Source of the DNA: Candidatus Hydrogenedentota bacterium
GTDB taxonomy: Bacteria > Hydrogenedentota > Hydrogenedentia > Hydrogenedentales > SLHB01
DNA: 64,000 nt
Reading direction: 5' to 3'
NCBI GenBank assembly: GCA_020849535.1
Contig: JADLGB010000037.1
Location: forward strand, 28,814 to 92,813
A program made the translations under genes and the position numbers. Shown here piece after piece: positions 24,203 to 44,397 of this stretch (the stretch's first letter is position 1; every line of letters starts with the position of its first letter). The notes beneath the pieces are model-generated. The model saw only the letters and a program-made list of their open reading frames with translations. It searched no databases and was not told the DNA's origin.

Positions 24203-24206
24203 GTCT

Positions 24207-28248: not shown

Positions 28249-28884
28249 TCAAGGATGGAAGATGCCCCGCAACAGATCATCCGTGGCGGCGTAGTCCATG
28301 ATGACTGACGGCACAAAACGAACCAGTTCGTGGGGGGAAGCGTCTCGCAGGGGGAGCGGCAGAATATCCTTCCATCGTTCCTGTATCAGGACCGCTGTTT
28401 CGCACTGCATGTTCCACGGCAACTGCTGCCAAGCGGCCTGTACCGCGCGCCAGAGCATGTCCTTTCTTCGGGCCGTCTTGATTTCGTTTGCCACAGACGA
28501 CAGGGCGTGGCGTATTGCCTCGTCTCCCAGGGTCTGTGCGTCGTAAAGGAGTGCGTCGATGCCTTTGCCCCAAACGCCCCAGTACGTTTGTTCTAGACTC
28601 ATGCACGCATCCGCCAGGAGAGCCTCATGCTCGACCACGCGCCGAGGCGCCACAACACGATACAAGTTGGCAAGCAAGCGAGCCGTCTCATTCAGGAGGT
28701 ACTCGATGGTGACACACGACGCCGGCGCACGTTCCCGCAGGAACGAGGCCAGTTCCTTGTCCGCCGGTTCATCAATGAGAAGACGGCAACTCTTGCCGTC
28801 GCTAGCCGCCAAGGCCTTTCGGACGAATTTCCACGGATCTGTGGAAGCCTCACAGCGTGTCATAGGCGAAAACCTTCGGGTCAT
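28249..28884 (-). CDS. Helical protein, divergent fourth copy of the operon-specific ~190-aa helical domain
   Basis: Shares the block order VTIEYLLNETARLLANLYRVV ... GKGIDALLYDAQTLGDEA ... ERWKDILPLPL with the three clearer copies. Start uncertain (28863/28884/28953). Overlaps the upstream ATPase stop. Confidence 0.45.
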   Translation of the reverse strand: MTRRFSPMTRCEASTDPWKFVRKALAASDGKSCRLLIDEPADKELASFLRERAPASCVTIEYLLNETARLLANLYRVVAPRRVVEHEALLADACMSLEQTYWGVWGKGIDALLYDAQTLGDEAIRHALSSVANEIKTARRKDMLWRAVQAAWQQLPWNMQCETAVLIQERWKDILPLPLRDASPHELVRFVPSVIMDYAATDDLLRGIFHP

Positions 28885-31288
28885 CCACAAACTCGCCTCG
28901 GAGCGGCGCCGGGGCCCTGCCGCGACTTCGCAGAGCGGCGAGAGCCTGTTCACGCGTTACGCAATAGCGTGCGCGCGACACTTCCTTCGCCCGCTCGGCC
29001 ATGCCTGGCACTTCCGGCTCTCCCAGTGTTGGGGTAACTAGGCGAACGACATCCCGTCCTATTCGCGCGATGGCGTGTCTTGGTTCCAAGGACAGAAGTT
29101 CCCCAGGCGCAATACCGCCTCCCAGATTTCGAGCTACCATGGATTCATCTGCGGCCGTCACGGCGAAAGCGATGGTCGTTCCCACCACCCCCAGCGAATC
29201 AATGCGCTTGCGCGTTTCCATCTGACTCAGATACTGGTGGGCGAGGACCATGCTGCACTCGTACTTCCGCAGCTCCACGAGGATATTCTCGATGGAGTCC
29301 GTGGTGAATCGATGCACCTCATCGATGTAGATATGGCAGGGACGCCGCAGATGGGGCAACAGTTCACTGCGGGAAAGGGCGGCCTGGTGGATGAGCGCTA
29401 TAAGAAATGTGCCAAGGGTGTTGGCGGCCATCCCGACGGAACTGAGGTCGGCCAGGAAAATTCCGCGTTCATCCATGAGCCTTCGCAGATCGAAGGAACT
29501 GTGTGGATAGGCGAACATGAGTCCGAGCGTGTCGTGCAAAAGCAGTTTGGTCAGTTTGTGTTGGACGGGCGCGAAATCGGCCGGACCGTATCTGGGAAAC
29601 TCGTGCTCCCAGAAGTGACGTGCCTTCGGATTGTCCACCACGGCCAGAATGTCCTTGCACAGGCGTTCGCGCGCCGGATGCTTGGGAGTCAGGAGAATAG
29701 AGACATCCGACAGAGTGGCGTGACCGGTTTTCATGAACCCATAAAGGGCCTGGCGCAGAAGCGTCTCAAGACGGTCTCCCCATCCCGAAGATATGTGTGA
29801 GACACCATGAATGAATTCGTCGGCCACGCGGTCCGGTACGCCACCCTCCAGGAGATTCCACGCCGGGATGGCCTTCCCCCCGGGATCGAAATGGACCAAG
29901 CGATCAAGGTGCTCCTCTCGGAGGCGACTTAAGATTCCCTCGCTCAGGTCGCCGTGCGGGTCTACGACGAAGGTCGCCTCTCCTCGTTCGATGTCCCGAA
30001 GACACATCCCTTCCATGGTCTTCGACTTCCCCGTGCCAGGCCGGCCGATCAAGTGAATGTGCTGCATGCGCAACGAGTCCGGGACGAATACCGGGCGCGA
30101 CTCGCCCGCCCGCTCGAGTATCCCGACCAAGGTTCCCTCCGAGAAGATCTCGTCCCCATGCGGCAACGGAGACACTATGGGCATGGTGGAACCGGGGCCT
30201 TTGAGGGTGCTCAGGGGCGGTATGTGAAGCCATGAGCAGCACTCGAGACTATTCAAAAGTATGCCGCAGCGATGGGAGACTCCGCGGGTCAGCATGAGCT
30301 CGATGCCTTTCGTCCCGATTGCATCCCGAAACGAAATGTCTGTCACATACAGCAAGGGACGGCCTCCATGCTGAAACACGCCGAGAAAAGTCGTGAGAGC
30401 CCGAAGCCACGCCCGGCGTTCTTCTTCGCTGGATCCGAAGACGCCGACGCGGGCCAGCACGTGGAAGAAGGGCTTATCCGCGTGGGCCTTCCAGGATACC
30501 TCGTTCGACAGCGCGTTCAGCTGAGCCGAAGGGGTCTGTTGGGCGTAGGGTTGCGCGAGATGGTGGGCGCCATGCAACCGCGCCAGGTAGGACAGGTCGC
30601 GGAGCAACGCCACGTTCAAATGCCAATCGTGGTCGGGCGCCACGGGCTGTGCCAGTACCTGGAAAACACCCAGCATCCCCGGCGGCAAGCCGCTCAGAAT
30701 TCGCAGGAAGGGTTCCAGCGGCGAGAGGTGAAGCTCATTCGGGCGGGTGAGGAGCTCCGTATAGGGCGGCGGCGCCCACGTCTCAACAAAGGAGAACCGG
30801 TCCCAGACACCAAGTTCCAGTTGGTCCATGGGGTGATCTCGGAGAACGGTAAGCTCCCCTTCCGGGAAAATACCGCGGAACGCTGCTTGGCACATGGGCT
30901 CGTCGTCCTCGCGGCAAGCCAATGAGAACAGGAGCCGATCCCTGCCGCCTACAATGTCAAAGACGAGACGGTGCCGTAGACCCTGGAGCTGTTTCAGCAT
31001 CAATTCATTGCGAAGCCAGTCGCACGGGTGGTCGGGGGGTACCCACACCTGGAATCGCCGCCATTCGTTCGGCGCCGTGGGAGTTTCGGGAACGTACCAG
31101 GCTTCCTCCGCGCCGAGGAGCAAATCTTCGGGCTCCCGAAGCGGTCTGTAGGGGGGTTCCAATGCTACGGGCGCCGGTGCGATGTCCCCCAGACACCCTT
31201 TGGTGACCTCCAGTTCACAAAGGTGCGCCGCTTTCGCCGCAAGCATTGCGGACCGGCTCCGGGGAATGGGCACAGGGGCAGAAAACAC
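28850..31288 (-). CDS. TraD/VirD4-like FtsK-HerA superfamily ATPase with ~400-aa unknown N-terminal region
   Basis: Walker A LIGRPGTGKSKTM followed by VVDPHGDL. Walker B HIYIDEVHRF. MVLAHQYLSQM (coupling-protein-type AHQ motif). Confidence 0.7.
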   Translation of the reverse strand: MFSAPVPIPRSRSAMLAAKAAHLCELEVTKGCLGDIAPAPVALEPPYRPLREPEDLLLGAEEAWYVPETPTAPNEWRRFQVWVPPDHPCDWLRNELMLKQLQGLRHRLVFDIVGGRDRLLFSLACREDDEPMCQAAFRGIFPEGELTVLRDHPMDQLELGVWDRFSFVETWAPPPYTELLTRPNELHLSPLEPFLRILSGLPPGMLGVFQVLAQPVAPDHDWHLNVALLRDLSYLARLHGAHHLAQPYAQQTPSAQLNALSNEVSWKAHADKPFFHVLARVGVFGSSEEERRAWLRALTTFLGVFQHGGRPLLYVTDISFRDAIGTKGIELMLTRGVSHRCGILLNSLECCSWLHIPPLSTLKGPGSTMPIVSPLPHGDEIFSEGTLVGILERAGESRPVFVPDSLRMQHIHLIGRPGTGKSKTMEGMCLRDIERGEATFVVDPHGDLSEGILSRLREEHLDRLVHFDPGGKAIPAWNLLEGGVPDRVADEFIHGVSHISSGWGDRLETLLRQALYGFMKTGHATLSDVSILLTPKHPARERLCKDILAVVDNPKARHFWEHEFPRYGPADFAPVQHKLTKLLLHDTLGLMFAYPHSSFDLRRLMDERGIFLADLSSVGMAANTLGTFLIALIHQAALSRSELLPHLRRPCHIYIDEVHRFTTDSIENILVELRKYECSMVLAHQYLSQMETRKRIDSLGVVGTTIAFAVTAADESMVARNLGGGIAPGELLSLEPRHAIARIGRDVVRLVTPTLGEPEVPGMAERAKEVSRARYCVTREQALAALRSRGRAPAPLRGEFVDDPKVFAYDTL

Positions 31289-31343
31289 GAGGCCTCCTTT
31301 CCAAGAGAAGGCGGCGGAAAGGAGGCCAGTGTTTCAAGGTAAC

Positions 31344-31919
31344 TCAGCGGCGAACGGCCTGTCCTAACGAGCGAATGAGTTTCGGGTGCGCTTCGAGATA
31401 CCGCGGGAAGTGCACGAGCATTCTGGCCTCGTCTTCCCGCAACATGTCCTCTGGCAAGAGATGCGCCCACTTCCGCCTGTATTCCGCGACGGTGGCGAAG
31501 CGTTCCTGCGTGGACAAGCCGCACCAATAATGCGCCACGCGGGCCGCCACTTCATTGTCTGCGAGCTGTTCGGCGAAGCCATGCGCTGTGTCCCGAAAGA
31601 CGCGCCTCAGGCCGCCTTCAATCCCATACACCGCACGCCGCACTGCGAGACGCGGCCCGTCGGGCCCATAAAGCCGATGGAGTACTTCGGAACACCGGAC
31701 CCAGTCGTGGGCGGGATCGATCCACCGCCTCCCGGTTCCAAAGACAATGCCGTCCAAATGCACAAAGAATCGCACCATCAGGTTCCGGAATTCCACTTCG
31801 TCGCGCACGTCAGGACCTGTAACCGGAAACAAATCCATGGCATCGACTGCACGCCGAAGAATGGCATCGTACGTGCGGGATGGATGCAGACTATCGAGAA
31901 GAAGGTCGAGCTTCGTCAT
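31344..31919 (-). CDS. 191-aa helical protein (copy 3 of the operon-specific domain)
   Basis: GGAGGTG RBS 6 nt before ATG at 31919. Blocks VRDEVEFRNLMVRFFVHL, GIEGGLRRVF, EYRRKWAHLLPED. Confidence 0.6.
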   Translation of the reverse strand: MTKLDLLLDSLHPSRTYDAILRRAVDAMDLFPVTGPDVRDEVEFRNLMVRFFVHLDGIVFGTGRRWIDPAHDWVRCSEVLHRLYGPDGPRLAVRRAVYGIEGGLRRVFRDTAHGFAEQLADNEVAARVAHYWCGLSTQERFATVAEYRRKWAHLLPEDMLREDEARMLVHFPRYLEAHPKLIRSLGQAVRR

Positions 31920-31943
31920 GGAATACACCTCCGCCTTGTGCGC

Positions 31944-32522
31944 TTAGATGCGACGAAACACTGACGCCATCTGACGCGATGCTTGCAGCAGAGAACGAAT
32001 AAGTAGTTCGACATCCTTGGCATACCTCTCCGGGTGGTTGCGATCGATGCCGGGAAGCGTCGGCGAGTACGAGTCGATGAATTCTCGCACTGTGCGCACC
32101 CGGAGCTCCCAGTCGTCCGGCGGAAGGTAACGGTCTAAAACGTCGCGCATCTGATGTTCCAACGCTTCCGCCTTCATGGCGTCGCAGAGAACGTCCAGGA
32201 TGTGACGCAAGCCACCGTTCAGAGAGTCCAGGCAGTCGCGATATGCGGAAACCGCGTCGCCGCCTTGGCGCCGGAGTTCTTGATTCAACATCGACTTGCC
32301 TTGGCCCGCTGCCGTAGCGCGCGAAGGCGAGCTGCCGGGGGTGACGCATTCCCTGTATACATATTGCACGTAGTCCGCAAGGATATCCGTGAAATCTGGA
32401 TAGTCCCTGACCGAATTCGACGACGGCCGGTAGGCCAAACGCGTCTGGTCGAATGGTCTGGCGATTCGCTGCGCCAGCGTCACTTCGTCAAGTTCCTTCA
32501 GCATCGAATTCAGGCGACTCAT
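31944..32522 (-). CDS. 192-aa helical protein (copy 2 of the operon-specific domain)
   Basis: GGAGGA RBS 7 nt before ATG at 32522. Blocks RPFDQTRLAYRP, VRDYPDFTDILADYVQYVY, LNGGLRHILDVLCDAMK, YSPTLPGID. Confidence 0.6.
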   Translation of the reverse strand: MSRLNSMLKELDEVTLAQRIARPFDQTRLAYRPSSNSVRDYPDFTDILADYVQYVYRECVTPGSSPSRATAAGQGKSMLNQELRRQGGDAVSAYRDCLDSLNGGLRHILDVLCDAMKAEALEHQMRDVLDRYLPPDDWELRVRTVREFIDSYSPTLPGIDRNHPERYAKDVELLIRSLLQASRQMASVFRRI

Positions 32523-32542
32523 TTTCATATCCTCCATTCTTG

Positions 32543-34228
32543 TCAAAGTCGACGCAAAGTCTGCGTCATTTCGTTCAGGCACCGCGCTATAGCGCGGGCC
32601 AGGTCTTCCCACCTTGCAGTGAATCGCTCGATGGGCGCCTCACATAGGTCTACGGGCAGTAAGGATCCAAAGCGAGCGAAAACGGCCTGCACGAATTTCT
32701 CTCTGGCGCTGTCATTGCGCCCCTTCATGGCCGTAGTGAACGTGAACAGGACGCTTTTCTCGTAGTCTTTTTGTTTGCGAAAGTCGGCCATGGCATCCAG
32801 GATCGAGCGCATACCCCCGTTGACGCCGAGTTCGCCTTCCAGTTTCGCTCCTTCTATTCCACCCGCCCGCGCATAGGCTTCGTTGAGATAGGCCAAGGAT
32901 TCCGCCTCCAAGGCCGTTCGATCCGTCAGATCGAGGGTTACTCCCAGCTTCCCCATCAGGTGCACGTAGAAGGACATGATCACGTCCACAACGTCGTCCC
33001 AGGAATCACTTGTGACAAAACCCGGGTTGAACGTGAGGCGGGCTTCATCAATAGGACGACTAATTGCGCTCGATAGGAATTCCGCGCTCAAGCGAGAAAG
33101 GACAAGATCCGTTGTATCCTCCGCCGCGCTGTAATCCACCTCTTGTGCGCTTACCACCGGAGGAATTGCTGAGGAAACACAAGCATGCGAGAGGACACGA
33201 CCCTCGACAGCCTGAAGCAACACGGTGACGTCTGCGGCGTCTTCAGTACCGCCGAGAAGGCCCACCTCTAGGCATCGTCCAAAATCCGTAAGAGGAAACT
33301 GGAGGCTGCGCCGGCGCAAGGGCGCCAAGCCGGCCAGTGTGTGCATGAGACGTTTTCCCATCCCGGATGGATAGTGGCCCTCGCGCATATGGTGGCCCAG
33401 AAACGCCGCGAGCAGAGCTTCCGCTCCCGGTCGGTCGGACTGCGTCAAAGCGGCTGCCGTGGCCGACCAAAAGCGCTCATGGTGATTCTTCAGCAAGTGG
33501 GCGGCAGCGCGACGGACCGGGGATTCGGGAAAGCAATTAGGCACGGCATGCCCGAAGATGCCTTTGCGAAGAATTGCGAGGGGGATATCGAGCTCTTGAA
33601 CGGCGACCATCAAGGCTTCGGCGACATCATGAACAGGGGTGGCATGAAACTGCTCCCGAGCTTCCGCCAGGGCCGCTTCGATTCGTTCCGCCTCCGCCGG
33701 GGCCATGACATTGAGGGACCCGTCGGCCCCAAAGGCCGGATAGACGAACTCCCTCACCTCATGTTGTTCCCGGGCGGCCTGCACTTTGGCAGGCAAGGCC
33801 CCTACCGGCCCAATCGTTCCGATGAGGGATATCAGTGCGCCGGTGAGAATTACGTCTTGACGCAGCGGCAGTTCAAGAGCCGACGACAACATGGTCAGGA
33901 AGAGGGGAAGTTCAACAGAGTGTCCCCCCTGCACAGCATCAGCCCCGTACACCCCGATGGCGTCGAGGCCTTCGATTGTCACTTCCCAGATCGGTATGGA
34001 TGCGCCCAAGGCATCGAGGATTTGAACTACCGTCGGAACCACGGTCGCTTCCGCATGTGCTATGGCATCCGGGTCCAGGCCTATTCGACTCCGCATGCGC
34101 AAGCGTTCCTCGCCCGGCCCTTCAGACGAAACCGCCAGTACGGCGGAAACAAACGCGCGGCCAGCGGACGGCACGACGATGACCGTCCGGGCGCGCCCTA
34201 TAATTCCTACTGTGGATGAGCACATCAT
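32543..34228 (-). CDS. Lon-protease-like (S16) N-terminal domain fused to the operon-specific helical domain; no AAA+ module
   Basis: N-terminal ~175 aa: GGHSVELPLFLTMLSSALELPLRQDVILTGALISLIGTIGPVGALPAKVQAA parallels the Lon DGPSAG...TGE...GG.KEK layout, with Ser and Lys positions retained. C-terminal blocks RPIDEARLTFNP, SDSWDDVVDVIMSFYVHL, VNGGMRSILDAMADFRK, FGSLLPVD. Confidence 0.55.
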   Translation of the reverse strand: MMCSSTVGIIGRARTVIVVPSAGRAFVSAVLAVSSEGPGEERLRMRSRIGLDPDAIAHAEATVVPTVVQILDALGASIPIWEVTIEGLDAIGVYGADAVQGGHSVELPLFLTMLSSALELPLRQDVILTGALISLIGTIGPVGALPAKVQAAREQHEVREFVYPAFGADGSLNVMAPAEAERIEAALAEAREQFHATPVHDVAEALMVAVQELDIPLAILRKGIFGHAVPNCFPESPVRRAAAHLLKNHHERFWSATAAALTQSDRPGAEALLAAFLGHHMREGHYPSGMGKRLMHTLAGLAPLRRRSLQFPLTDFGRCLEVGLLGGTEDAADVTVLLQAVEGRVLSHACVSSAIPPVVSAQEVDYSAAEDTTDLVLSRLSAEFLSSAISRPIDEARLTFNPGFVTSDSWDDVVDVIMSFYVHLMGKLGVTLDLTDRTALEAESLAYLNEAYARAGGIEGAKLEGELGVNGGMRSILDAMADFRKQKDYEKSVLFTFTTAMKGRNDSAREKFVQAVFARFGSLLPVDLCEAPIERFTARWEDLARAIARCLNEMTQTLRRL

Positions 34229-34923
34229 GGAGTTTGCACGCTGCCTTCCAAGATGATCTCAAGGCTGCCGTTTTCCAGGCCTGAAAAGGTACGCAGAACG
34301 ATTCCGCCTGCATGACACGCGATCACTCGAGATGGATGAGACTTGTCCCCGACACCCTCGGCCGCAAGTCGAAGGGGTTCCGGGCGGGAACTCGTACGAA
34401 TGAGCAAGTCTGCTTCTTCCAAGCGGCCTTCCCAAAGCAGCCGTCCCGTCGAAAAGGTCACGCGATACTCACCAGGGACAAGGCCCGGTATGACTGTACT
34501 TTCACCGGGCGAGACCAACCGGGCGCGGACGAACTCCAACTCCCGCCGGTGTACCACCACATCGACGGACGAGTCGAGCGGCCCGAAGGCCGTGACGACT
34601 CGGCGGAGTGCATCGAGCCGTATTCGCAGGTCTGGGCGATGCACAAGCTCTCTGTCCAGATCTTCAACATGACGGGGGCTGGATAGGATGGCCTCTAGGA
34701 AATCCAGGGAGTCGGTGTCCGCGTCGTCATCGCAGGAAGCAAGCGATCTCAACTCGCGTTTCACCTCTCCCATGAAGTCTCCGAACTGGGCCCAGCCTTT
34801 ATGGAATTCCGGTATCTTGCCCAAGTCTTTGATAGTCTGAAATGCCTCCTGGAGTGAATGCAGCGGGTCCGTAGACCGTAGCGCGTCCAGAATGATTGGG
34901 GCGAAAAACACATCATGAACCAT
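34225..34923 (-). CDS. Hypothetical protein (helical N-terminus, beta-rich C-terminus)
   Basis: Start taken at MVHDVFF (34923). 4-nt overlap with the downstream Lon-like gene. C-terminal VIPGLVPGEYRVTFSTGRLLWEGRL looks like a beta-sandwich strand pattern. No catalytic motif seen. Confidence 0.45.
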   Translation of the reverse strand: MVHDVFFAPIILDALRSTDPLHSLQEAFQTIKDLGKIPEFHKGWAQFGDFMGEVKRELRSLASCDDDADTDSLDFLEAILSSPRHVEDLDRELVHRPDLRIRLDALRRVVTAFGPLDSSVDVVVHRRELEFVRARLVSPGESTVIPGLVPGEYRVTFSTGRLLWEGRLEEADLLIRTSSRPEPLRLAAEGVGDKSHPSRVIACHAGGIVLRTFSGLENGSLEIILEGSVQTP

Positions 34924-36127
34924 GGGCGGTACCCCCCTGATGCTTCCGGCTTCCACTGGCGATGGCCGATACCCGTTCCCACAAACCGACGGACTTGGCC
35001 GCCTCAAGCAGCCAAGGCACCCGAGCCACAATCTTGGCGATGTTGACGTAAAGATGGGGAACTTGGACGCGATTGCTATTGCTTTTTAGCCACTCGCGGC
35101 CTGCAAAGCGGCTGAATGTTGCTCGACTAAGGCCATGACGGGAGGACAAAGCGGCGTCCGTGAATTCCCCAGATACCAGATTGTTCAGCACGTCGAGAAC
35201 TAGATTCCGCACTCCTTCGACGCCCAAGCCGCGAATTGCAGTCGGTAGCACCTCAATACCGGCGGCCTTCTCGTCAGCAACGAATTCCTGAACCGAGGAA
35301 CTCCGAACGCCTCGGAAACCAAGCGGCAAGTCAACTTCCCACGGCGGTGCCGGGATATCCCCCGCAAGGTTTTCATGCAGCGCAACAAAGCCGGGCTTCG
35401 GAAACCAAGCGTCTATGGCTGCCTGAATACGTCCGGCCTCGCGGGAATCCGATGGGTCGAATTGCCCTATATGCGCTTCGAGCCAAAGGCGGCGTTGCTT
35501 GCCAGGGAAGTCCTTGGGAAATCGCACCGTCACATGTGATCCGTTCACAGGCCATCTATACCGCGATGTCAGCAAATCCTCTTCCCGGCGTGCCTCCTTG
35601 AGGCAGTAGCCAAGCTGATGAAACACTAGACCTTGCAGCAAAGCAGCCTCGCGGCTCTCCAATTCCGCCTCGGTATCGGGTGGCTTCGCGGCGAAGTCCT
35701 CGTGCACAAGCTTTGTGACCGCGGCGAAAGTCTTGCTGCAGTCCGTCTCCCTAAGCTTTCGCGTAGGCGGCGAAGCCGATTCCTCGGCTTCCTGGTGGTC
35801 AGGGCTTACAGAAGCCTCTGTCTCTACGGGCAGCCGTGACCACCGGTCCATCACAAGTTGCGTTGCCCGATCGATGATGTCGCCAGTGCGGTGGCGGGTC
35901 CCCATGCTCTTTGATGTCTCGATGCGCCAGACCTCGATGAACTCACCAAAGGTCATCAAACCCCTGCCAGCCACTTCGAACAGCCTACGGCTATGAAATT
36001 CATCGAGAGCAGTCCGGTCAGCATTCTCGGCGATGCACCCGGCCAGTTCGGATGCTCGCAGCATGCGCAGGTGACGCGCGTCCAACCCTCGATTCAATTT
36101 ATCTTCGCGTCGGTCTTGCACAGTCAT
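34913..36127 (-). CDS. Hypothetical protein with possible C-terminal HTH
   Basis: 404 aa. 4-nt overlap with the upstream gene. LSSRHGLSRATFSRFAGREWL resembles a helix-turn-helix. Function unknown. Confidence 0.45.
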   Translation of the reverse strand: MTVQDRREDKLNRGLDARHLRMLRASELAGCIAENADRTALDEFHSRRLFEVAGRGLMTFGEFIEVWRIETSKSMGTRHRTGDIIDRATQLVMDRWSRLPVETEASVSPDHQEAEESASPPTRKLRETDCSKTFAAVTKLVHEDFAAKPPDTEAELESREAALLQGLVFHQLGYCLKEARREEDLLTSRYRWPVNGSHVTVRFPKDFPGKQRRLWLEAHIGQFDPSDSREAGRIQAAIDAWFPKPGFVALHENLAGDIPAPPWEVDLPLGFRGVRSSSVQEFVADEKAAGIEVLPTAIRGLGVEGVRNLVLDVLNNLVSGEFTDAALSSRHGLSRATFSRFAGREWLKSNSNRVQVPHLYVNIAKIVARVPWLLEAAKSVGLWERVSAIASGSRKHQGGTAHGS

Positions 36128-36876
36128 AGCAGGATCTCCGAAATTTGGTTGAACAAATCGCCGAGAACGCTACACACGAAGTCCCATTGCCACCAGAATA
36201 CGAGCGGAATCCCAATGAGAAGTGTGAGGTTGGCAAGAACCATGAAAACGTCCAAGGCGTTTGCATCAAATCGTGAAGGCTCGAAGGACGACGAAGGCGG
36301 CCGAAAGTTCGTCGTGGCGGAATAGACGGGCGTAATGTCGATGCTTGGCGGCGAAGCGGAGTAGTTGTTCAAACAATGCTGTCGCAGGGACTCGCGAGCA
36401 AATTCGTCGATGTGGTCCCTATCTTTCCGGAGCTTGGCGAGAAGCTGTTCCATGCAATCTCGCTGCCCCCGCCAGTACTCGTCTTGATCGGATTTGTCGT
36501 CTACTACGTCCAACATGATGTTGACATTGTGTTTGCGCGCTGCACGCGCGCCACAGTCAATGAGTTCGGACGCTGGCGTCTTGGTTTGGGCACGCATCGC
36601 AAAGGTCGGGCGCTCACCCAACTCGCCGGACCCTTGTACGGTAGCGATGATGCCGTGATTCGGCCTATACGACGGAATATTCGACAGATCCAGGTCCCCG
36701 CGAATTGCGCTCTCGCCCAGAGATGTCAGCGTGTACGATTCGTCCGGAAACGAGGACGACAAGAATGCCCACGAACTGGACTCCCCTCCGACAGGACAAC
36801 CGTTCTTCGGTTCCGCCCAACGAAGGATGTCGTCTTTGATCTTGTCTGCGTCGTCATACCGCCAGTCGTTGCTCAT
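36124..36876 (-). CDS. Tail-anchored membrane protein (single C-terminal TM helix)
   Basis: 250 aa. Soluble N-terminal part, then VFMVLANLTLLIGIPLVFWWQW near the C-terminus. 4-nt overlaps on both sides. Confidence 0.5.
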   Translation of the reverse strand: MSNDWRYDDADKIKDDILRWAEPKNGCPVGGESSSWAFLSSSFPDESYTLTSLGESAIRGDLDLSNIPSYRPNHGIIATVQGSGELGERPTFAMRAQTKTPASELIDCGARAARKHNVNIMLDVVDDKSDQDEYWRGQRDCMEQLLAKLRKDRDHIDEFARESLRQHCLNNYSASPPSIDITPVYSATTNFRPPSSSFEPSRFDANALDVFMVLANLTLLIGIPLVFWWQWDFVCSVLGDLFNQISEILL

Positions 36877-37208
36877 GACACTATCTCCTTATGTCGTTTG
36901 TGGTCGCGCGAATCACGCGGCCCTGTCGTGTGGTCTAGGTGGCAACCCCTATGCGTGTCGTGTTTGGAGGGAATGACGAAAGAACGAAGACCGCCTGGAC
37001 CGCGGGCATAGGATTCGGCCGAGCTGTTTTGGGCACTGTTCTCTGAAAGAGCAGAAGAATAGCCGGCATTCGAAAACGGCTGGGGCAGGAACGGAGACGA
37101 ACTGGAATCACCTTCAGAGAATCCGTAACTGGCCCCAGGTATGGTCCCTAAGATATGCAGTTTGATCTCGCTCGCATTGTCATTGCAACTGTGATTGCTC
37201 ACGTTCAT
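36873..37208 (-). CDS. Small Ser-rich low-complexity protein
   Basis: 111 aa. 4-nt overlaps with the kinase gene (upstream) and the TM-protein gene (downstream). SEGDSSSSPFLPQPFSNAGYSSALSENSAQNSSAES. Coding status supported mainly by the coupling. Confidence 0.4.
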   Translation of the reverse strand: MNVSNHSCNDNASEIKLHILGTIPGASYGFSEGDSSSSPFLPQPFSNAGYSSALSENSAQNSSAESYARGPGGLRSFVIPSKHDTHRGCHLDHTTGPRDSRDHKRHKEIVS

Positions 37209-38041
37209 TTCTCCAGGCAGCGTTGGATAACGCGCCGTATGTGCTCCGGCACTCCGCCGAGTCGCGCGGGCGTTTCGAAGAGATGGCCGGTGCGTTGCCT
37301 ATCGGCACCGCCGGAAAACGGCGGCCTACATTCTCGACTGAAGATTTCATAGCCGATACAGCCCAGTGCGTAGCAGTCGGCTCGGGCGCCCACGCGCTGG
37401 GGATCCTCGCCCCGCCACAACTCCGGCGCGGTGTAGGCGGGCGTCGAATACACCCGATGTGAGGGGCTTTCCTTGACGTTTTTCTCATGACGAAGCGATA
37501 TCGACGATGCGAGGTCGCACAGTACCGGACTGGATGCGGTCAGAAGAACGTTGGCTGGCTTCAGGTCCAAGTGTAAGAATCCCTGCGCATGAAAGACGGC
37601 AACGGAATCGCACAGCCCTGCGAAGAGTTGGAGTCCCTTTTCAAGGCGGTAGCCATGGCTCGCCTCATGGCGCTTGAGCCAGTCCCGCAGGGTCCCTGCC
37701 GGCACGAATTCCAAAGACACCGCCACAAACTGCCGAGCCGCCCACGCCACTTCGTAGAGCCCGAGCGCGGCAACGACGCACGACCGGTCATGCAGCTTCC
37801 TGCGCACGTCTACTTCACGGCGCACCGCGCGCCATCCATGCCCGTTCCCGCGAGGGGCAAACTTGAGTGCGACCTGCCGGGCGTATTTCGTATCCAGTGC
37901 GCGATACACCCTGCCGTGCCCGCCGTCGCCCAGCTTTGCCTGGAGGACGAAGCGGCCGTCAGCCGAGCTCAGCCCGTGAACGGCGGCTTCGGCCCTGCAG
38001 TCTGCCTCGAAGACCCATTCGCTTTTGATAGTTGCCGCCAT
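37205..38041 (-). CDS. Hanks-type Ser/Thr protein kinase, catalytic domain only
   Basis: Gly-rich loop LGDGGHGRVY. VALKF lysine. Catalytic loop HLDLKPANVL. DLA in place of DFG. TPAYTAPE activation-segment end. Confidence 0.8.
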   Translation of the reverse strand: MAATIKSEWVFEADCRAEAAVHGLSSADGRFVLQAKLGDGGHGRVYRALDTKYARQVALKFAPRGNGHGWRAVRREVDVRRKLHDRSCVVAALGLYEVAWAARQFVAVSLEFVPAGTLRDWLKRHEASHGYRLEKGLQLFAGLCDSVAVFHAQGFLHLDLKPANVLLTASSPVLCDLASSISLRHEKNVKESPSHRVYSTPAYTAPELWRGEDPQRVGARADCYALGCIGYEIFSRECRPPFSGGADRQRTGHLFETPARLGGVPEHIRRVIQRCLEK

Positions 38042-38044
38042 GTC

Positions 38045-39931
38045 TCAGTACCTGAACGTCCTCTTTGCGTTGACAGCACGACCTACCGCCCAAATCAAGG
38101 CCTTGAAGCATCGGCCGGCCCACGACGCAAACTCGGATGAATGTATAGCGTCGAGCACGGCGCGCATGGCCTTTGCTTCCGGACAGACAGTCTGGTCGCC
38201 AGGAGTGACGCTTACTACTACATGTGCGCGCACGTCATCGGCTACTGCGGGAAAGGGGCACGCCACTGCACGGCGGATACCTGAAGACGGGTCCAACTCG
38301 ACCATGCACAAGGTCATACTCGTCCGGCAGGCGCCCTCGTGGAACCACATCCACTCCCGTGCGTGGAGTTCCAAGCGTCCAAGGCCATCCACGTCCAACT
38401 CCCGCATCACTTCTTCAGCAGTCACCGCTACATGATGTGTAAGTATGGGCTGGAGGCGCGTCACCGAAATGAAGCTCCGGACGGATTGACCCACAACCTC
38501 CGACCCGGCGACCACATCCGCAAGCGTAAGCTTCTCCCCCGGAACCACGGTCAGACGGCCCTCGGCCTCGGCTTCGCACAGCATCTCGACCTTCCTGAGA
38601 TCTCCGGCGTTCCCGGCTTCCAGGGCTTCGAGCCGGCGCCGACACTCCAACGCCGGCCCAAATTGAAATAGTGCTTCATGCAACTCGGCCTGCCGTTGCA
38701 GAAAGTTGAGCGTCGCAGCAGTTGGGGCCCGGTCGTCGAGATACTCCGCTTGTCGGACCCGGACCGACAATTCCTCCACCCAAGCCGCGCCCGTGTCTGT
38801 ACCGCGTGAGCGAATCAAGTCCGCCTGCAGTTCGAGCGCAACGTGACCGTATCCCAATGCCACCATGCGCTCGACCACATCGTCGAAGGTACTGAACCCG
38901 TCCGGTAGGTGTCCGGATTCAATTGCAGCGGCAAACCCTTCCACTTCCGCCCGCCGAAGAGCCTCGCGGTATGCTTGTAGTGACGCGCGATCCTGGCCTG
39001 CAACTGATCGGAAAGGCGTGGCGGAGTCAACCGTATACATCGGTGACAGTGCCTGCGATTCGAACCGGTATGCCGTTGCCCTTCCAGTGCCATCAAGCAG
39101 AAGAAGCCCTTCTTCGATCCCGGGCAGAAACGTCCCGGCAGTAACGTCCGGCGGTCCCTCCCACACGTGCAGCGGGCGATTCGCAACAGTCAGCCACTGT
39201 TTTACCCTGCGATCATGCCGCCCGACGGTCAAGAGCGTCTCTTCCTGCGGAAGCAACACATAGAACGATCCTTCGTGAGCAGGGACCGCTGAAATCGTGC
39301 CTGTATGGAGGTTGTACGTGGCCAATAGTCCCCCTCGCGCGGGCCACGAGAGCGATGCCTCGTCTGGTGAGGCAATAAGGCGTACAAGCGCCGTCTTCCG
39401 GGGAGGACGAGGCGCCGCAATTGTTGCGATGGGCTTCGTTCGATCGACCATCCAGTTCAGCAATGACCCATCCCGGGCCAGACCCCAGAGACCTTCGCGA
39501 AGCGCTACCAGCGCGCATATGGGGCTTAACCCTGTTTCAAGGCGCACAGGCGGCTGTGCGATGCCGGCCGCAGTATTACGCCAAACATAGACCCCGGACA
39601 TGTCTGCGGCAGCAATAAGATCTTCCCCGATGGCGACCGCCTCGACCGCTTGGCCTGTTAAGCGAAGACAGCGTCCGGCTTGAGCCGCGTCTCGACCCAA
39701 ACCGCCAAGGGTGAACAGGTCTACCCGGCCGCCGCGCGTGCCGATCGTTTCCTGGTTGTTCCGACGGTCCAGGGCGTAGCACCCGTGGCCCCGGCCGTAT
39801 TCCGCCGCCGTGCTTAGACTGCCCGTCGCTGGATCAAGCCGTTCCAGGCGGCCCAGCTGGCTGCCGCCGCCCATCAGGATGAAACATTCGTCCGGGTTGA
39901 TTGCCTGCATGTTTCGAGATCCATTCCTCAT
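38045..39931 (-). CDS. Putative 7-bladed beta-propeller protein with helical middle and unknown C-terminal domain
   Basis: About seven ~40-aa units in the first ~300 aa (e.g. AVAIGEDLIAAADMSGVYVWR, ICALVALREGLWGLARDGSLLNW, GGLLATYNLHTGT, LLTVGRHDRRVKQW). Helical region ~300-450. 3-nt gap to the kinase gene. Confidence 0.5.
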   Translation of the reverse strand: MRNGSRNMQAINPDECFILMGGGSQLGRLERLDPATGSLSTAAEYGRGHGCYALDRRNNQETIGTRGGRVDLFTLGGLGRDAAQAGRCLRLTGQAVEAVAIGEDLIAAADMSGVYVWRNTAAGIAQPPVRLETGLSPICALVALREGLWGLARDGSLLNWMVDRTKPIATIAAPRPPRKTALVRLIASPDEASLSWPARGGLLATYNLHTGTISAVPAHEGSFYVLLPQEETLLTVGRHDRRVKQWLTVANRPLHVWEGPPDVTAGTFLPGIEEGLLLLDGTGRATAYRFESQALSPMYTVDSATPFRSVAGQDRASLQAYREALRRAEVEGFAAAIESGHLPDGFSTFDDVVERMVALGYGHVALELQADLIRSRGTDTGAAWVEELSVRVRQAEYLDDRAPTAATLNFLQRQAELHEALFQFGPALECRRRLEALEAGNAGDLRKVEMLCEAEAEGRLTVVPGEKLTLADVVAGSEVVGQSVRSFISVTRLQPILTHHVAVTAEEVMRELDVDGLGRLELHAREWMWFHEGACRTSMTLCMVELDPSSGIRRAVACPFPAVADDVRAHVVVSVTPGDQTVCPEAKAMRAVLDAIHSSEFASWAGRCFKALIWAVGRAVNAKRTFRY

Positions 39932-40560
39932 TTCCAGATAGGTCCATCCTCAATGAGTTTGCGAACCTGGGTGCTCATCGGATCTTTCCTCGAAGAGCCA
40001 CCCCGTTTTTCTCTACTTTCGGCAGGACTGGGAATCTCCGGCAGCACAAGCGGCGGAAACTTCCGAGGCTTGTCTTTGGCGGGCCACGGGCGCAGCCTCT
40101 GGCGATCAAGAGCTATGCAAACGTAACGTTCCGCGGCACGATGATCACGCTCAATACACTCCGCGTCCAGCAGCTCCTGTTCAAGCTCTCGGACAGAGTC
40201 CGCATACGCATCTGCGGTCGCCTGGAGCTTTGCCTGACGCGCATCTTCTCGTACACGGCTGAGCTTTGTCCGAATTCGGATGAGACATTTCTGAATGAAT
40301 TCATTCTCCTGAATGTGACTGGCGAGCATTCGCCTTATGTGCTCGATAATCTCGTCGCGCTTTGCATATTCCTGTTCGGCCGCGGGGATTTGTCCGATTT
40401 CGTTCGATTCCGGATTCCCCAGGAGCCAAACGTAACGACTCAGTTCGTCAGTTTTTCGTATCATGTTCTGGCGATTGATGCGAAACTCGGACCGGCATTC
40501 CGCGAGCGATTCAGGCGTGCGCCATCCCACTTTGAACTCTGAACTCTTCTCATCTTGCAT
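39928..40560 (-). CDS. Coiled-coil protein
   Basis: 210 aa. Heptad-like charged helices (RVREDARQAKLQATADAYADSVRELEQELLD). 4-nt overlap with the downstream gene. Confidence 0.5.
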   Translation of the reverse strand: MQDEKSSEFKVGWRTPESLAECRSEFRINRQNMIRKTDELSRYVWLLGNPESNEIGQIPAAEQEYAKRDEIIEHIRRMLASHIQENEFIQKCLIRIRTKLSRVREDARQAKLQATADAYADSVRELEQELLDAECIERDHRAAERYVCIALDRQRLRPWPAKDKPRKFPPLVLPEIPSPAESREKRGGSSRKDPMSTQVRKLIEDGPIWK

Positions 40561-41071
40561 CGCTGCTCCTTCCTGTCAGTCGAGCCCGCAAAGATTCAAT
40601 CAGCCTCCGGCTTTCAATCCGGTTGGCATTGTCCCGTTTCTGCAAGCTACTGAGGATCTCTGTCTCCTCCTCTACTGCACGCAACGCGAGCTCCACGCGT
40701 TCGATAGATTCGTGGATGTGCAGTTCCTTGGCGTCCCGCCCAAGGGTTGACTCCGTTTCTCTTGAGGAATCAATGACCCGATCCAACTCGCGTTCACGCT
40801 CCTCGCCTTCCTGCTGCAAGTCGCCCGCGGCCTCGTCGTGTTCACGGGCATGGTCGCGTGCGATGTCCTCGGCTCTGGCAAGATGCTGATCCGCCGCGTC
40901 AGCACCCTCTTGAGTCAAACCTTCCTTGACAGCCAGGCGGGTGCCTTCGACGATCTCGGTATCACTGACGCCTTTCTCGATTTCTTTCGTCTCGGCGCCC
41001 AGCTGGTCTCGAGCTTCGTCTACTTCACAATTCAGGTCGGTTCTACTCCTGATATCCCGATGCCGCATCAC
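40550..41071 (-). CDS. Acidic coiled-coil protein
   Basis: 173 aa, very E/D/R-rich helices. 15-nt gap after the HerA-like gene, 11-nt overlap with the next gene. Confidence 0.5.
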   Translation of the reverse strand: MMRHRDIRSRTDLNCEVDEARDQLGAETKEIEKGVSDTEIVEGTRLAVKEGLTQEGADAADQHLARAEDIARDHAREHDEAAGDLQQEGEERERELDRVIDSSRETESTLGRDAKELHIHESIERVELALRAVEEETEILSSLQKRDNANRIESRRLIESLRARLTGRSSDAR

Positions 41072-41086
41072 GGTCTCCTTGGTCTG

Positions 41087-43801
41087 CTACGCGATTTCGT
41101 CGAACTTCGCGCGCAGCGTTTTGGCGTGCAGGGCAATCGCCTGTCCAGCCTTGTCAAAGCGTTGTTCCAGGGTGTCTATAAGGGATCTGAAATCTCCGTC
41201 CAGCCAAGAAGGCTTGGCCAGACGCTTCACTGATCCGCGGGAACGAAACAGGTCCGCCTGCCACTCTTCGAGGTCGCGCAGCCACCGTGCCAAGGCGGAC
41301 GCCCGGGCGTTGCGGCTGCCCGTTGCCGCGAGATCGGATGGTATCGAATCCAAGACCTCCCACAATCGATCGACCCGGTGATTGCAGGCCTCCAATGTGC
41401 CGAAGATGGATTCCTCCATGTCACGGCGATATTGCGGATCCTCTTCCAGGATCAAGAGCAGCTCCTGCTCGGACAAGGGCTCTTCAAGTCCGAGATCCTT
41501 TTTCGTGTTGGGCAGACGCAGGCGCCGCGGAAAGACATAGCCGTCCGTGCTGAAGAAACAATCACCCTTGCCGAAACGGATGAGTTCGTCCCGCTGCTCC
41601 GGGGACAGAAGCATTGCCTCAGCCATACGTTCGACGTCCTGGAGATCTTGCTGCTTGAAGCAGACAATAGAGCCCACGCTCTTGAGGACTGCCGGAGAAA
41701 TGGCTGTCGGATGCTGGTCGAATATGGAAATGCTCAAACCGGCTGCTCGCCCCTCCGCCAGCAGCCGGGTAATAAGCTCCTCCGCAAACGCTGCTGTGTA
41801 GGGCGCATCGGGCGAGGCCTGGGCGGGTCCAATTGTGGGCGGGAAGACAACGTGTGCCTCCTCGATCACCACTACAATACGAGGAAGGTCTCCCCTGTGT
41901 GGCGTTGCGCTTAAGATTTGCCTCAACTCGGACAAGAGCGATATCGCCTCAAGCTGGGCTTGTTCGCGGCTCAAACCCTCCAACTCAATTATCAGGCAAC
42001 CTGAGGGCAGTGGGTCGAGTGAGGGAACGTTCTTGCTTGTGCGGTAAGCGTCTCCGGAGCGGCCCAACAAAAGCGGATAGAAGCGCACCAGCCCTGCGGC
42101 GATGAGATCGGCCTCCACAGACGGTTCATAGTGCTTCGAACGGACGACAGAGATGTATGCCATCAGGAGGTCGTCATAGGTTGGAGGGCAGGCCCGGTTC
42201 TCGAAATGATCATACAACGTGTGTAGGCTCTCTACTAGGAGTGGCTGCATGGGGCCTTCCAGGGGCGTCGAAGCCTTGAGACTCGTCAAGACGGACGTGA
42301 TGCCTTCGTCCACTGAGGCGCCCGTAGGAAGGATTAGCTGGTTTCGACGGTAGGGGAGCTTATTTGTTGAGGGACTACACAAACGAATACCCCGACCGAT
42401 ATTACGCAAGGCGGGGTTGCTGTGCCGCCGCAGGCGCAGCAGATCACGGTACTCCCGCTTGCTGCACTCAAGAATCACGACGGGAACGCCCTTCGATGCC
42501 CAATGGATGACTTCGGCAAAGCCTAAACTCGTCTTGCCAGTGCCGGTCATCCCAAGTGATCCGAAGTGTGTCGCTATGAAGCTGTCTACAATGCCACGCC
42601 AGAGAAGAGCGATATCTCTGACCGGTCCACCCGGGCACCAGTCTTGCCCTATGGGAAAGAGGCGATCTGCTGCTACGTCGAGGGGGTCACTGTCCTTGCG
42701 CACGGTCAGTGTCGGACCGGGGCCTGCCACGGGCGGAGCCACAAGGGATGTTAACTCCGATACGGAGGCAACCTGCGACAAGGCTTCCAACGGCGCACAA
42801 CACGCGGGAACGTTGCCCGGGTAGAATCGTGCAAGTGTTCGAAAGGGGTGTACGCGGCCGTGCCGCAGCGACTCACACAGCGCCTGGAGTTCATCACCGT
42901 CACTGATCGTGAGTAGTCCGTAAGACCCATCATCAAGGGTCCCTTCGGCCAAAGCTCCGGCGACCAGGCGAGCCGTAGTCGCACTTTGTGCCATGACGTA
43001 TGCCCCGAACCGTAAACTGGGCGGCCCCAGAACGCGAAGCAGGTCGCTTGCGGAACGTTCAGGGCCCTCCGCGACCGCATCTGGTTTGATGGGCGGTTCC
43101 ACGGGACGCACGTAGTCATGCAAGTGGGTCGCGTCAAGGAGTGGGCTCTCCACGCCTGCAATGGCATCAAGCCGTGAAGGGTGCAAAACTTCTCCCAAGC
43201 GTGCTGCATAGGTGCGCAAGGCCCCTGCTTCAGCGGCGATTTCCGCTCGGGCAACCGTAATCGCGATGACCACGGTTTCGTCCAGCGAGGAGAGAACCCT
43301 ATCAAGTGTAACGTGATTGCGGCGACGCCTGCCTTTGATCTCGCCAAGCAGATAATAACCCTCGCCAACGACATGGGGGTTGTCACGGGGGTCAATGCCC
43401 GGGGGAATAACATGACCGGGTCGCGTAAGCACGACGCCGGCCTTCACCTCGTCCAACGGGAGATCGAAATTCGAGATTTCCTCGAGGGACAAAAGCAGGC
43501 CCAGGCTTCCTCCCTGGATCCGCCTAATCATCGACTCGACTTCTTCGGAGTCACTACCACGAATTTGGACGATATTCTGAAGCCGCTCATGGGCAGTTCT
43601 CGCGGAACGTGGATGAAAGACATAGAAAGAAGAAAGCGTCAAGTCACTATCGGCTGGACTCGAGGTAAGTCCGCGAAGGATCTCGGCAGTCCCATCCAGT
43701 ACACCATCGAAAATGGACGCGGTTGTTGCATACCGATGGTTGGGCGAACAGGGGTCTGGCCATGCCTTAAGGCGGAGAGAACTTGACACCGACTGGTTCA
43801 A
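41087..43801 (-). CDS. HerA-like FtsK-HerA superfamily ATPase with ~400-aa N-terminal and coiled C-terminal extensions
   Basis: TTG start at 43801 with AAGGAGGA RBS 7 nt upstream. Walker A GMTGTGKTS. Walker B RIVVVIEEAHVVF. SISIFDQHPTAIS sensor-like region. Confidence 0.7.
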   Translation of the reverse strand: MNQSVSSSLRLKAWPDPCSPNHRYATTASIFDGVLDGTAEILRGLTSSPADSDLTLSSFYVFHPRSARTAHERLQNIVQIRGSDSEEVESMIRRIQGGSLGLLLSLEEISNFDLPLDEVKAGVVLTRPGHVIPPGIDPRDNPHVVGEGYYLLGEIKGRRRRNHVTLDRVLSSLDETVVIAITVARAEIAAEAGALRTYAARLGEVLHPSRLDAIAGVESPLLDATHLHDYVRPVEPPIKPDAVAEGPERSASDLLRVLGPPSLRFGAYVMAQSATTARLVAGALAEGTLDDGSYGLLTISDGDELQALCESLRHGRVHPFRTLARFYPGNVPACCAPLEALSQVASVSELTSLVAPPVAGPGPTLTVRKDSDPLDVAADRLFPIGQDWCPGGPVRDIALLWRGIVDSFIATHFGSLGMTGTGKTSLGFAEVIHWASKGVPVVILECSKREYRDLLRLRRHSNPALRNIGRGIRLCSPSTNKLPYRRNQLILPTGASVDEGITSVLTSLKASTPLEGPMQPLLVESLHTLYDHFENRACPPTYDDLLMAYISVVRSKHYEPSVEADLIAAGLVRFYPLLLGRSGDAYRTSKNVPSLDPLPSGCLIIELEGLSREQAQLEAISLLSELRQILSATPHRGDLPRIVVVIEEAHVVFPPTIGPAQASPDAPYTAAFAEELITRLLAEGRAAGLSISIFDQHPTAISPAVLKSVGSIVCFKQQDLQDVERMAEAMLLSPEQRDELIRFGKGDCFFSTDGYVFPRRLRLPNTKKDLGLEEPLSEQELLLILEEDPQYRRDMEESIFGTLEACNHRVDRLWEVLDSIPSDLAATGSRNARASALARWLRDLEEWQADLFRSRGSVKRLAKPSWLDGDFRSLIDTLEQRFDKAGQAIALHAKTLRAKFDEIA

Positions 43802-44353: not shown

Positions 44354-44397
44354 AAGGTGTGGTAAGACATGGCCACGCTTGGTTTGGAGTTCGAAGC

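Follow-up and report, generated by a model that had tools for sequence, protein, structure and literature searches.

Gene block and encoded proteins

The window analysed here is a 64,000-nucleotide stretch of a contig from a Candidatus Hydrogenedentota bacterium. It contains a chain of closely spaced genes on the minus strand, running from position 43801 down to 28249, which encodes two large ATPases of the FtsK/HerA superfamily, a Lon-like protease, a Ser/Thr kinase, a WD40 β-propeller protein and a number of smaller proteins (Table 1). An initial reading of the DNA without database searches, referred to below as the sequence-only reading, had put this block forward as a candidate conflict system in a defence island. 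No description of the gene set was found in the searchable literature. As set out below, we do not favour defence cargo, and lean towards regarding the block as the conserved backbone, a DNA-handling machinery, of integrative mobile elements that form a family not described before.

The open reading frame (ORF) listing, the translations and a junction table recover an unbroken chain with the same junctions as the sequence-only reading, although it comprises 14 genes rather than the 15 counted there. Adjacent genes overlap by 4 nt (five junctions), 11 nt (two) or 14 nt (one), or are separated by gaps of 3, 15, 15, 20 and 55 nt, and Shine-Dalgarno-like GGAGG/AAGGAG motifs lie immediately 5' of several of them. 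The end of the cluster, which had been placed at 28249, has to be moved; genes on the same strand continue to 21847 and encode a 196-aa protein, an AEP primase-polymerase (prim-pol), NrdD, NrdG and a 534-aa primase/helicase-like protein. The location in a mobile island is upheld by an integrase and a tRNA-Met at one end. A promoter-like site 5' of the HerA-like gene was picked out by pattern matching alone. Iterated hidden Markov model searches over the ORFs of all related loci define two conserved modules. Module B consists of p404, p232, Lon-h, hA, hB, the VirB4-like ATPase, hC and the prim-pol; Module A consists of the HerA-clade ATPase, cc1, cc2, the WD40 protein and the kinase.

Table 1. 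Features of the window in order of position, with strand in brackets; figures after family names are E-values.
Feature	Position	Module or place	Remarks
Host protein, 1366 aa	8717-12817 (+)	outside island	BlaR1 M56 peptidase, many HEAT repeats, SecDF P1-head
tRNA-Met	19378..19454 (+)	element end	ARAGORN and Rfam; likely integration target
Tyrosine integrase	19616..20815 (+)	element end	Phage_integrase 4.9e-10
Primase/helicase-like protein, 534 aa	21847..23451 (-)		phrog_10537 1.2e-57; phrog_19930 (DNA polymerase/primase) 4.7e-29
NrdD and activase NrdG (anaerobic ribonucleotide reductase)	23477..26309 (-)		NRDD 5e-183; Radical_SAM 1e-22; cargo or replication support of the element
AEP primase-polymerase	26475..27557 (-)	Module B, end	AEP-TOTE 1.7e-29; PrimPol_Msp 6.5e-22; PDB 7nqd 3.5e-13
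196-aa protein	27542..28132 (-)	lineage-specific	homologues in only 5 loci
hC, h-domain paralogue, 204 aa	28249..28863 (-)	Module B	start overlaps end of ATPase gene by 14 nt
VirB4-like ATPase, 812 aa	28850..31288 (-)	Module B	VirB4-like N-terminal domain; FtsK/HerA/TrwB-type P-loop domain
hB, h-domain paralogue, 194 aa	31344..31928 (-)	Module B
hA, h-domain paralogue, 192 aa	31944..32522 (-)	Module B
Lon-h, 561 aa	32543..34228 (-)	Module B	Lon-like S16 domain, middle region, C-terminal h-domain
p232, 232 aa	34225..34923 (-)	Module B	kept in 32 loci
p404, 404 aa	34913..36127 (-)	Module B	kept in 32 loci
Tail-anchored membrane protein, 250 aa	36124..36876 (-)	lineage-specific
Ser-rich ORF, 111 aa	36873..37208 (-)	lineage-specific	doubtful as conserved part
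Hanks-type Ser/Thr kinase, 278 aa	37205..38041 (-)	Module A	Pkinase 2.8e-28
WD40 β-propeller protein, 628 aa	38045..39931 (-)	Module A	kept in 20 loci
cc2, 210 aa	39928..40560 (-)	Module A	in 15 loci; 11-nt overlap with cc1
cc1, 173 aa	40550..41071 (-)	Module A	in 16 loci, directly after HerA-like gene
HerA-clade FtsK/HerA ATPase, 904 aa	41087..43801 (-)	Module A	with C-terminal tail
Candidate promoter, TTGACA-18-TAAAAT	44192..44221 (-)	5' of HerA-like gene	consensus scan, 11/12 positions; sigma-70-like
NACHT-type STAND NTPase	44284..48132 (+)	divergent from block	NACHT and AAA matches all weak; likely cargo
Region with MoxR-type ATPase and DUF2201_N protein	48468-53193 (-)	island
MoxR-type ATPase	49856-51346 (-)	island	near DUF2201_N protein
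DUF2201_N protein	51856-53193 (-)	island
ArdC-like protein, DnaQ/RNase T-like exonuclease, GP88-family protein	57063-58028 (-), 60932-61702 (-), 53240-53842 (-)	island, right part	ArdC-like: phrog_7245 8.8e-14
Orc1/Cdc6-type AAA+ protein	59306-60619 (+)	island

The 812-aa ATPase of Module B had been called TraD-like. This is correct in so far as the protein matches the Pfam family TrwB_AAD_bind (5e-9, 35.9 bits with a cutoff of 20.5), but it has no membrane anchor and is better named as a soluble protein of VirB4-like architecture; a hydropathy scan finds a transmembrane segment neither in this protein nor in the HerA-like ATPase. The N-terminal 380 residues were modelled from 87 sequences (pLDDT 89.8, pTM 0.89), and a Foldseek comparison of the model with the PDB returned TrwK/VirB4 of R388 (E 2e-5, probability 1.0, TM-score ~0.4). 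At the level of sequence the similarity to this family is marginal (TIGR00929, E 0.0027, 16 bits against a cutoff of 643). Among viral models, the N-terminal domain is matched better, at 1e-13 to 1e-14, by proteins of Bacillus phages, and in distant relatives of the ATPase it corresponds to Pfam DUF8128. The matched phage proteins are uncharacterised, 550-900 aa long, and belong to Bacillus phages Slash, G and JL (BFVD U5Q0H6, G3MBM2 and S5MSQ0); large Bacillus myophages (SPO1-like ones and phage G, with gp91 of CP-51 as locus L056) encode a VirB4-like N-terminal domain joined to an ATPase. The N-terminal domains of the two ATPases of the block are not detectably related to each other (hhalign probability 0.5%), and only the ATPase domain is common to them.

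The small proteins hA, hB and hC and the C-terminal 200 aa of Lon-h are mutually homologous (hhalign probability 99-100%), so that one domain, termed here the h-domain, is found four times in Module B. The paralogy of the ~190-200-aa proteins noticed in the sequence-only reading is thereby borne out. In Lon-h, the S16 domain spans residues ~60-200 and the h-domain residues 361-561. The matches of the former to Lon_C and ChlI are both weak; the presence of a Ser104/Lys148 dyad, with both residues invariant in 26/26 homologues, agrees with the earlier description of an AAA-less Lon-like protease. The protein p404 features a C-terminal motif, GLSxATFSRFAG, which by eye resembles a helix-turn-helix (HTH) in alignments of homologues. 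Its AlphaFold2 model, which is helical, reaches moderate quality (pLDDT 67); comparison with known folds gave weak TFIIB/sigma-like matches at best, none of them significant. Searches of PDB profiles returned nothing significant for p404 or the h-domain and nothing for p232, which has no Pfam match either. The possibility that p404 is a tyrosine relaxase or Rep protein was considered and rejected, as its only near-invariant tyrosine (Y190) is a phenylalanine in two homologues.

The 904-aa protein of Module A is HerA-like, as had been proposed; it has a weak match to DUF87, and a family profile of 60 sequences matches the ATPase domains of solved HerA structures (4.7e-11). The Walker A Lys423 and the Walker B Glu648 are invariant in the 60 sequences, while the N-terminal ~400 aa match nothing that was searched. 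The gene starts with a TTG codon, just 5' of which lies AAGGAGG. An exhaustive search for homologues of this protein recovers 182 cluster representatives at E<=1e-30, compared with only three in a word-based search. The two small proteins that follow, cc1 and cc2, which the sequence-only reading had described as coiled-coil, have no Pfam or PADLOC match. The β-propeller assignment of the 628-aa protein holds as well, since the family profile matches WD40 structures in the PDB (8.7e-21); the WD40 region covers residues ~30-275, and the C-terminal half has no assigned identity. The Hanks-type kinase assignment likewise stands, and the catalytic Lys, His-x-Asp, Asn and DFG-Asp are retained in 14-15/16 homologues. 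The kinase in the window lacks a helical tail of ~250 aa that is present in most relatives, family members elsewhere being ~540 aa long; Pfam TPR matches in these tails are faint. As judged from the sequences, both ATPases keep their catalytic residues, as do the kinase and the Lon-h dyad.

Two lineage-specific genes lie between the modules. The Ser-rich ORF has no homologue among any of the loci fetched. The next gene encodes, as had been suggested, a tail-anchored protein with one hydrophobic segment (residues 205-230), and the only homologues of this protein are three paralogues in the L001/L004 relative. The arrangement of a kinase followed by tail-anchored paralogues is seen in this lineage at 36124-38041 of the window (one paralogue) and at 10749-13809 of L001 (three). 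That the Ser-rich and membrane protein genes are remnants of the kinase C-terminal tail was tested and ruled out.

Recurrence and co-evolution of the two modules

Homologues of the 812-aa ATPase number 105 in the protein search, and the gene order of the block recurs at 44 loci in GTDB species genomes, confirming that the genes co-occur outside this genome. The order is kept at 25-80% protein identity among many unrelated genomes, and the block is therefore not a chance assembly. The hosts belong to at least seven phyla and include Planctomycetota (Phycisphaerae, Pirellulales, Sedimentisphaerales), Nitrospiraceae, Hydrogenedentota, Sumerlaeota, Victivallales, Desulfobacterota-type lineages (Desulfobacterales, Syntrophales, Pelobacter, Thermodesulfobacteriota), Ignavibacteria and Bacteroidales.

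Module B forms an operon that is near-invariant and evolves as a unit; it occupies the integrase/tRNA end of the elements and is present in fixed order in nearly every locus with sufficient flank. Module A is a facultative and invertible second operon. It lies directly upstream of Module B and co-directional with it in ~15 loci, is divergent in four (L011, L025, L030 and L032) and, within the available flank, is replaced in ~10 loci by other genes, among them those for a type I HsdR accompanied by Ymh and YgjP, for an SF1 helicase, for ThiF-like proteins, and for Orc1/Cdc6 with a 420-aa protein. ThiF/E1-like genes are found just 5' of Module A or B in three unrelated loci (L002 2974-4209, L025 1856-3325 and L051 3928-5085), in L002 together with a weak NUDIX gene.

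Co-evolution was measured as Spearman's rho between the pairwise distances of the 812-aa ATPase and those of each partner. The values are highest for the proteins with an h-domain (hA 0.83, hC 0.73, Lon-h 0.71, hB 0.70), followed by the kinase (0.63), the prim-pol (0.61) and p404 (0.51), and are close to zero for the integrase (0.05) and cc1 (0.02). Four genomes (three metagenome-assembled and one single-amplified) have two different copies each (L022 and L047, L013 and L035, L044 and L052, L031 and L050), and frameshift-decayed copies are found at L036, L040 and L050.

The integrase end of the elements has a characteristic order. The prim-pol is placed directly after hC in 42 loci, and the slot after it is occupied by the class III NrdDG in 7 loci and by a class II ribonucleotide reductase (RNR) with a TSCPD domain in 9. 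The integrase comes directly after the prim-pol in 12 loci, often with one small gene between them; otherwise the RNR is placed first and is followed by variable genes (XPB/DUF790/RecQ or an SNF2 helicase). In 7 loci other than the window a tRNA or tmRNA is located just past the integrase, the targets being Leu, Arg, Lys, Glu/Gln, Asp/Val, Ala and tmRNA, compared with tRNA-Met in the window. An RNR after the prim-pol is seen in ~40% of the elements (the window, L011, L013, L014, L015, L025, L035, L037, L047 and others); carriage of RNR genes is commoner in lytic viruses than in integrative elements.

The search was extended to phage and plasmid collections, where only the ATPase domain is matched, at ~25-31% identity, in SPO1-like Bacillus phages and in plasmids that are mostly from Streptomyces. 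Scanning IMG/VR with the ATPase alignment recovered no relative among 2.9 million contigs. Among the distant relatives, the ATPase at L055 is 30% identical and has an h-domain gene next to it (hmmsearch 1.3e-30); it also adjoins a Replic_Relax protein and an Xis-like HTH protein. Two other distant homologues are followed by large serine recombinases. At L053 (10001-12472) a DUF8128-ATPase is surrounded by housekeeping genes (those for CTP synthase, ribosomal protein L27, DnaX and seryl-tRNA synthetase), with no adjacent recombinase and the nearest integrase gene ~7 kb downstream.

Interpretation and comparison with known systems

Of the class-defining features that could be tested, only the generic ones of integrative elements are present: a recombinase at a tRNA/tmRNA border, replication genes, variable cargo and patchy spread across phyla. 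In the window, the element sits at the tRNA-Met with its integrase. The block is better explained as the backbone of the mobile element than as cargo because it is invariant, linked to the prim-pol, placed at the integrase/tRNA end, distributed across phyla, and found in multiple and in decayed copies. The known defence and helicase genes (type I HsdR, SF1 helicase, SNF2 helicase, NACHT) vary around the constant modules. On balance, the data favour an integrative mobile element whose core machinery is new to the searchable literature, and for this machinery we infer the following function.

Within this reading, Module B would most likely serve to handle the DNA of the element once it has been replicated. 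The integrase would excise the element, which would then be replicated by the prim-pol, aided by the element's RNR and, in some elements, by Orc1/Cdc6. The p404 protein, with its HTH-like C-terminal motif, may mark the element's DNA. The soluble VirB4-like motor, presumed to form a ring like other FtsK/HerA ATPases, would sit in a scaffold of h-domain subunits, to which a ring of the Lon-like protease would be tethered via its own h-domain. The motor may then pump the DNA or hand it over for transfer, packaging or segregation. Module A would supply a second, exchangeable motor of HerA type, with the WD40 protein and the kinase as putative sensors or regulators. As none of the channel components of a secretion system is present, passage of the DNA across the envelope would imply a helper-dependent or otherwise unconventional exit route. 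A more specific proposal, namely that the VirB4-like ATPase/h-domain/Lon-h and HerA/kinase/WD40 assemblies make up a membrane-less twin-motor machine which moves or encapsidates the element's DNA, is speculative, and we consider it rather unlikely as it stands.

Several observations weigh against the mobile-element backbone. The conserved core proteins have no predicted membrane segment, either in the window or in the other loci, and between 19 and 64 kb hydropathy analysis finds no multi-pass membrane protein and just one single-pass protein. No relaxase family (Pfam, NCBIfam, PHROG) is matched by the window proteins submitted, among which not all small ORFs were scanned, and there is no structural PHROG or Pfam match indicating a capsid, portal or terminase in 19-64 kb or in the core families. 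Attachment-site repeats (>=15 nt) of the tRNA-Met 3' end or of the integrase-proximal region were found neither in the window nor in 15 related loci, and these searches did not locate the right-hand boundary of the element. The VirB4-like architecture does not imply conjugation by itself, since tailed phages of Bacillus have the same one. Moreover, the kinase, the WD40 protein, the Lon-like protease and the HerA-type ATPases are usual parts of conflict systems; the best PADLOC matches are to mad6 (3.5e-36, kinase), mad8 (2.5e-12, HerA-like ATPase) and HerA models; in Pfam and the PDB, the prim-pol is closest to the prim-pols of TOTE conflict systems and to those associated with CRISPR; and defence systems, namely ARMADA and Druantia III, are known to be fixed on satellite-like elements (PMC12458937).

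The last of these points are the ones on which a different explanation would build, in which the block is a multi-gene conflict system, of defence or counter-defence, carried as fixed cargo by one family of integrative elements. The HerA/FtsK motors would intercept foreign DNA that invades or replicates, the WD40 and TPR parts would act as sensors and the kinase and Lon-like protease as effectors; the prim-pol would belong to the system in the manner proposed for TOTE and CRISPR-associated prim-pols. The matches to the ATPase domains of solved HerA proteins, the placement of the prim-pol within the AEP-TOTE and CRISPR-associated families, and the presence nearby of NACHT, type I restriction-modification and helicase genes are consistent with it. 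So is the existence of HerA/FtsK capture systems, described by Aravind and colleagues, that mix features of elements and of defence (PMC10853773). The latter neighbourhoods, like those of DndH/DptH, resemble the block in having HerA/FtsK domains in a mobile context, sometimes with Orc1/Cdc6 (PMC10853773), and the block ATPases have weak profile matches to DptH and to defence HerA structures. However, capture, SIR2-HerA and DUF4297-HerA systems have restriction-type nucleases, SIR2 or DUF4297 effectors and winged HTH (wHTH) arrays, none of which is detected in the block; in a test against HerA-effector and DndFGH systems, no SIR2, DUF4297 or restriction-endonuclease effector was found in any block gene, and none of the conserved members has a known effector domain, whether nuclease, NADase, TIR, pore-forming or of another type. 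The resemblance to MADS, whose models give the best PADLOC matches for the kinase and both ATPases, is restricted to generic kinase and P-loop domains. MAD6, MAD7 and MAD8 are all mandatory in the model of its authors, whereas the block has no mad7 match, methylase or specificity subunit, and its score with NCBIfam MAD6 is 86 against a cutoff of 460. TOTE systems combine TPR, OB (S1/CSD) and TBP components with an effector (PMC12458937); in the block there are no OB or TBP matches, the TPR signal is faint and limited to the kinase tails of relatives, and the AEP domain alone fits a TOTE-named family. The statement of the sequence-only reading that the gene set corresponds to no named system is thus confirmed; models from PADLOC, Pfam and NCBIfam assign it to none, and the PADLOC matches (HerA, mad8, mad6/kinase models) are generic only. 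The block is constant while recognisable defence genes change around it, it co-evolves with a prim-pol that is nearly always beside it and not with the integrase, RNR genes are embedded alongside it, several copies and decayed ones occur per genome, and the distant ATPase homologues adjoin relaxase-like proteins and recombinases. All of these argue against a conflict system, which we regard as unlikely, if still a serious contender.

Other explanations would retain the motors as DNA pumps of a known kind. In PRD1-type viruses the genome is packaged by FtsK/HerA ATPases (Iyer et al. 2004), and the element could be the provirus of an unrecognised group of non-tailed viruses, with one or both ATPases packaging the genome, the h-domain paralogues or other proteins forming the particle, and the h-domain-tethered Lon-like protease maturing it. 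The virus-like replication genes (prim-pol, primase/helicase-like protein, RNR in ~40%, Orc1/Cdc6, DnaQ-like exonuclease) point in this direction, as do the shared superfamily of the motors, the architecture common to the ATPase and Bacillus phage proteins and, by analogy alone, the fusion of a protease to a multi-paralogue domain, which recalls scaffold-targeted prohead proteases. A provirus is nevertheless improbable in view of the lack of relatives in IMG/VR and of structural PHROG matches in the window. A test for tailed or PRD1-type proviruses found no double-jelly-roll capsid, portal or terminase and no capsid-like fold, with fold predictions missing for several proteins of no assigned function; membrane proteins are absent whereas known viruses with such ATPases have an internal membrane, and at 800-900 aa the ATPases are far larger than the known packaging ATPases of that class. 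The sequence-only reading had mentioned a DNA-transfer apparatus as its own alternative. As a tentative reading this fits better than defence, in that the ATPase has a VirB4-like N-terminal domain, but no membrane component or relaxase is found. VirB4/TrwK (R388; PDB 8rtd, 7o42) is likewise ~800 aa long and has the same N-terminal α/β fold followed by an FtsK/HerA-superfamily P-loop domain; unlike it, the block ATPase has a Lon-like protease and three h-domain paralogues, all of them soluble, as its partners, and has no VirB3, VirB6 or VirB8 counterparts such as those of conjugative type IV secretion systems. Neither the membrane-spanning proteins of mating-pair formation nor a membrane-anchored coupling protein was found by hydropathy in 19-64 kb. 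A canonical conjugative apparatus, of type IV secretion or actinomycete TraB type, would account for the TrwB_AAD_bind match above the Pfam cutoff, the VirB4-like domain and the ArdC-like gene in the island. The combination of integrase, prim-pol and NUDIX genes also recalls actinomycete integrative conjugative elements (AICEs), where it was reportedly described by te Poele et al. in 2008. AICEs likewise have an integrase, a prim-pol-type replication gene and a single FtsK-superfamily DNA translocase; the integrase by the tRNA-Met and the AEP prim-pol provide such an integrase and Rep/prim-pol module in the window, and a NUDIX gene is found near one relative of the block. The TraB protein of AICEs is membrane-associated and has a C-terminal wHTH by which it binds clt repeats. 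In contrast, the ATPases of the block are soluble, with other N-terminal domains and 6-12 extra conserved genes around them; they have no transmembrane segment and no FtsK gamma/wHTH match, no repeat arrays are seen in the intergenic regions examined, no multi-pass membrane protein or relaxase family match is found in the island, and the hosts are diderm bacteria outside Actinobacteria. The canonical conjugation reading is contradicted because there is no channel component, and we consider it very improbable.

A close parallel in design to the mobile-element backbone is offered by the pT26-2 family of archaeal integrative plasmids, which integrate in tRNA genes and have a conserved core of mostly unknown proteins adjoining a variable region, the core including a VirB4/HerA-like ATPase thought to move DNA (PMC6972569). 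The logic is the same, the two being set alongside by description with no sequence relationship seen; membrane proteins abound in the core of the pT26-2 plasmids, whose hosts are archaea, whereas the core described here is without membrane proteins and is found in bacteria of many phyla.

If the backbone reading holds, the elements form a widespread, unannotated family in anaerobic sediment and subsurface bacteria, among them Planctomycetota, Desulfobacterota-type lineages, Ignavibacteria, Nitrospiraceae and Hydrogenedentota. The core of this family is missed by the models of PADLOC, Pfam, NCBIfam and PHROG as well as by IMG/VR, and in it a VirB4-type ATPase would operate without a secretion channel. 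The h-domain, p404, p232 and the 400-aa N-terminal domain of the HerA-like ATPase represent new protein families. Since recognisable defence genes are carried as variable cargo, the elements probably serve as vehicles by which immunity genes pass from one phylum to another. Were the twin-motor proposal true, the machine would represent a novel means of transferring DNA horizontally or else a novel type of virion, distributed over at least seven phyla, which escapes the current finders of conjugative elements, viruses and defence systems. If the block is a conflict system instead, it would rank among the largest known, with two DNA pumps connected to a Lon-like protease, a kinase and a prim-pol.

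Neighbouring genes and variable cargo

In the closest relative, too, the HerA-like gene has a divergent neighbour (L001 325-4068), with which the NACHT-type gene of the window shares 36% identity along its entire length; in this lineage the gene travels with the element. Of the MoxR-vWA pair proposed further along the island, the MoxR-type ATPase stands, but the 463-aa gene downstream gave no vWA match. Genes related to the Orc1/Cdc6-type gene of the island adjoin Module B in six further loci, including L033, L038, L041, L043 and L045, and these loci often carry a 420-aa protein of no assigned function on the opposite strand. The right part of the island also contains the anti-restriction ArdC-like, exonuclease and GP88-family genes listed in Table 1. 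Outside the island, a 1366-aa host protein joins a BlaR1-type peptidase to HEAT repeats and a SecDF P1-head.

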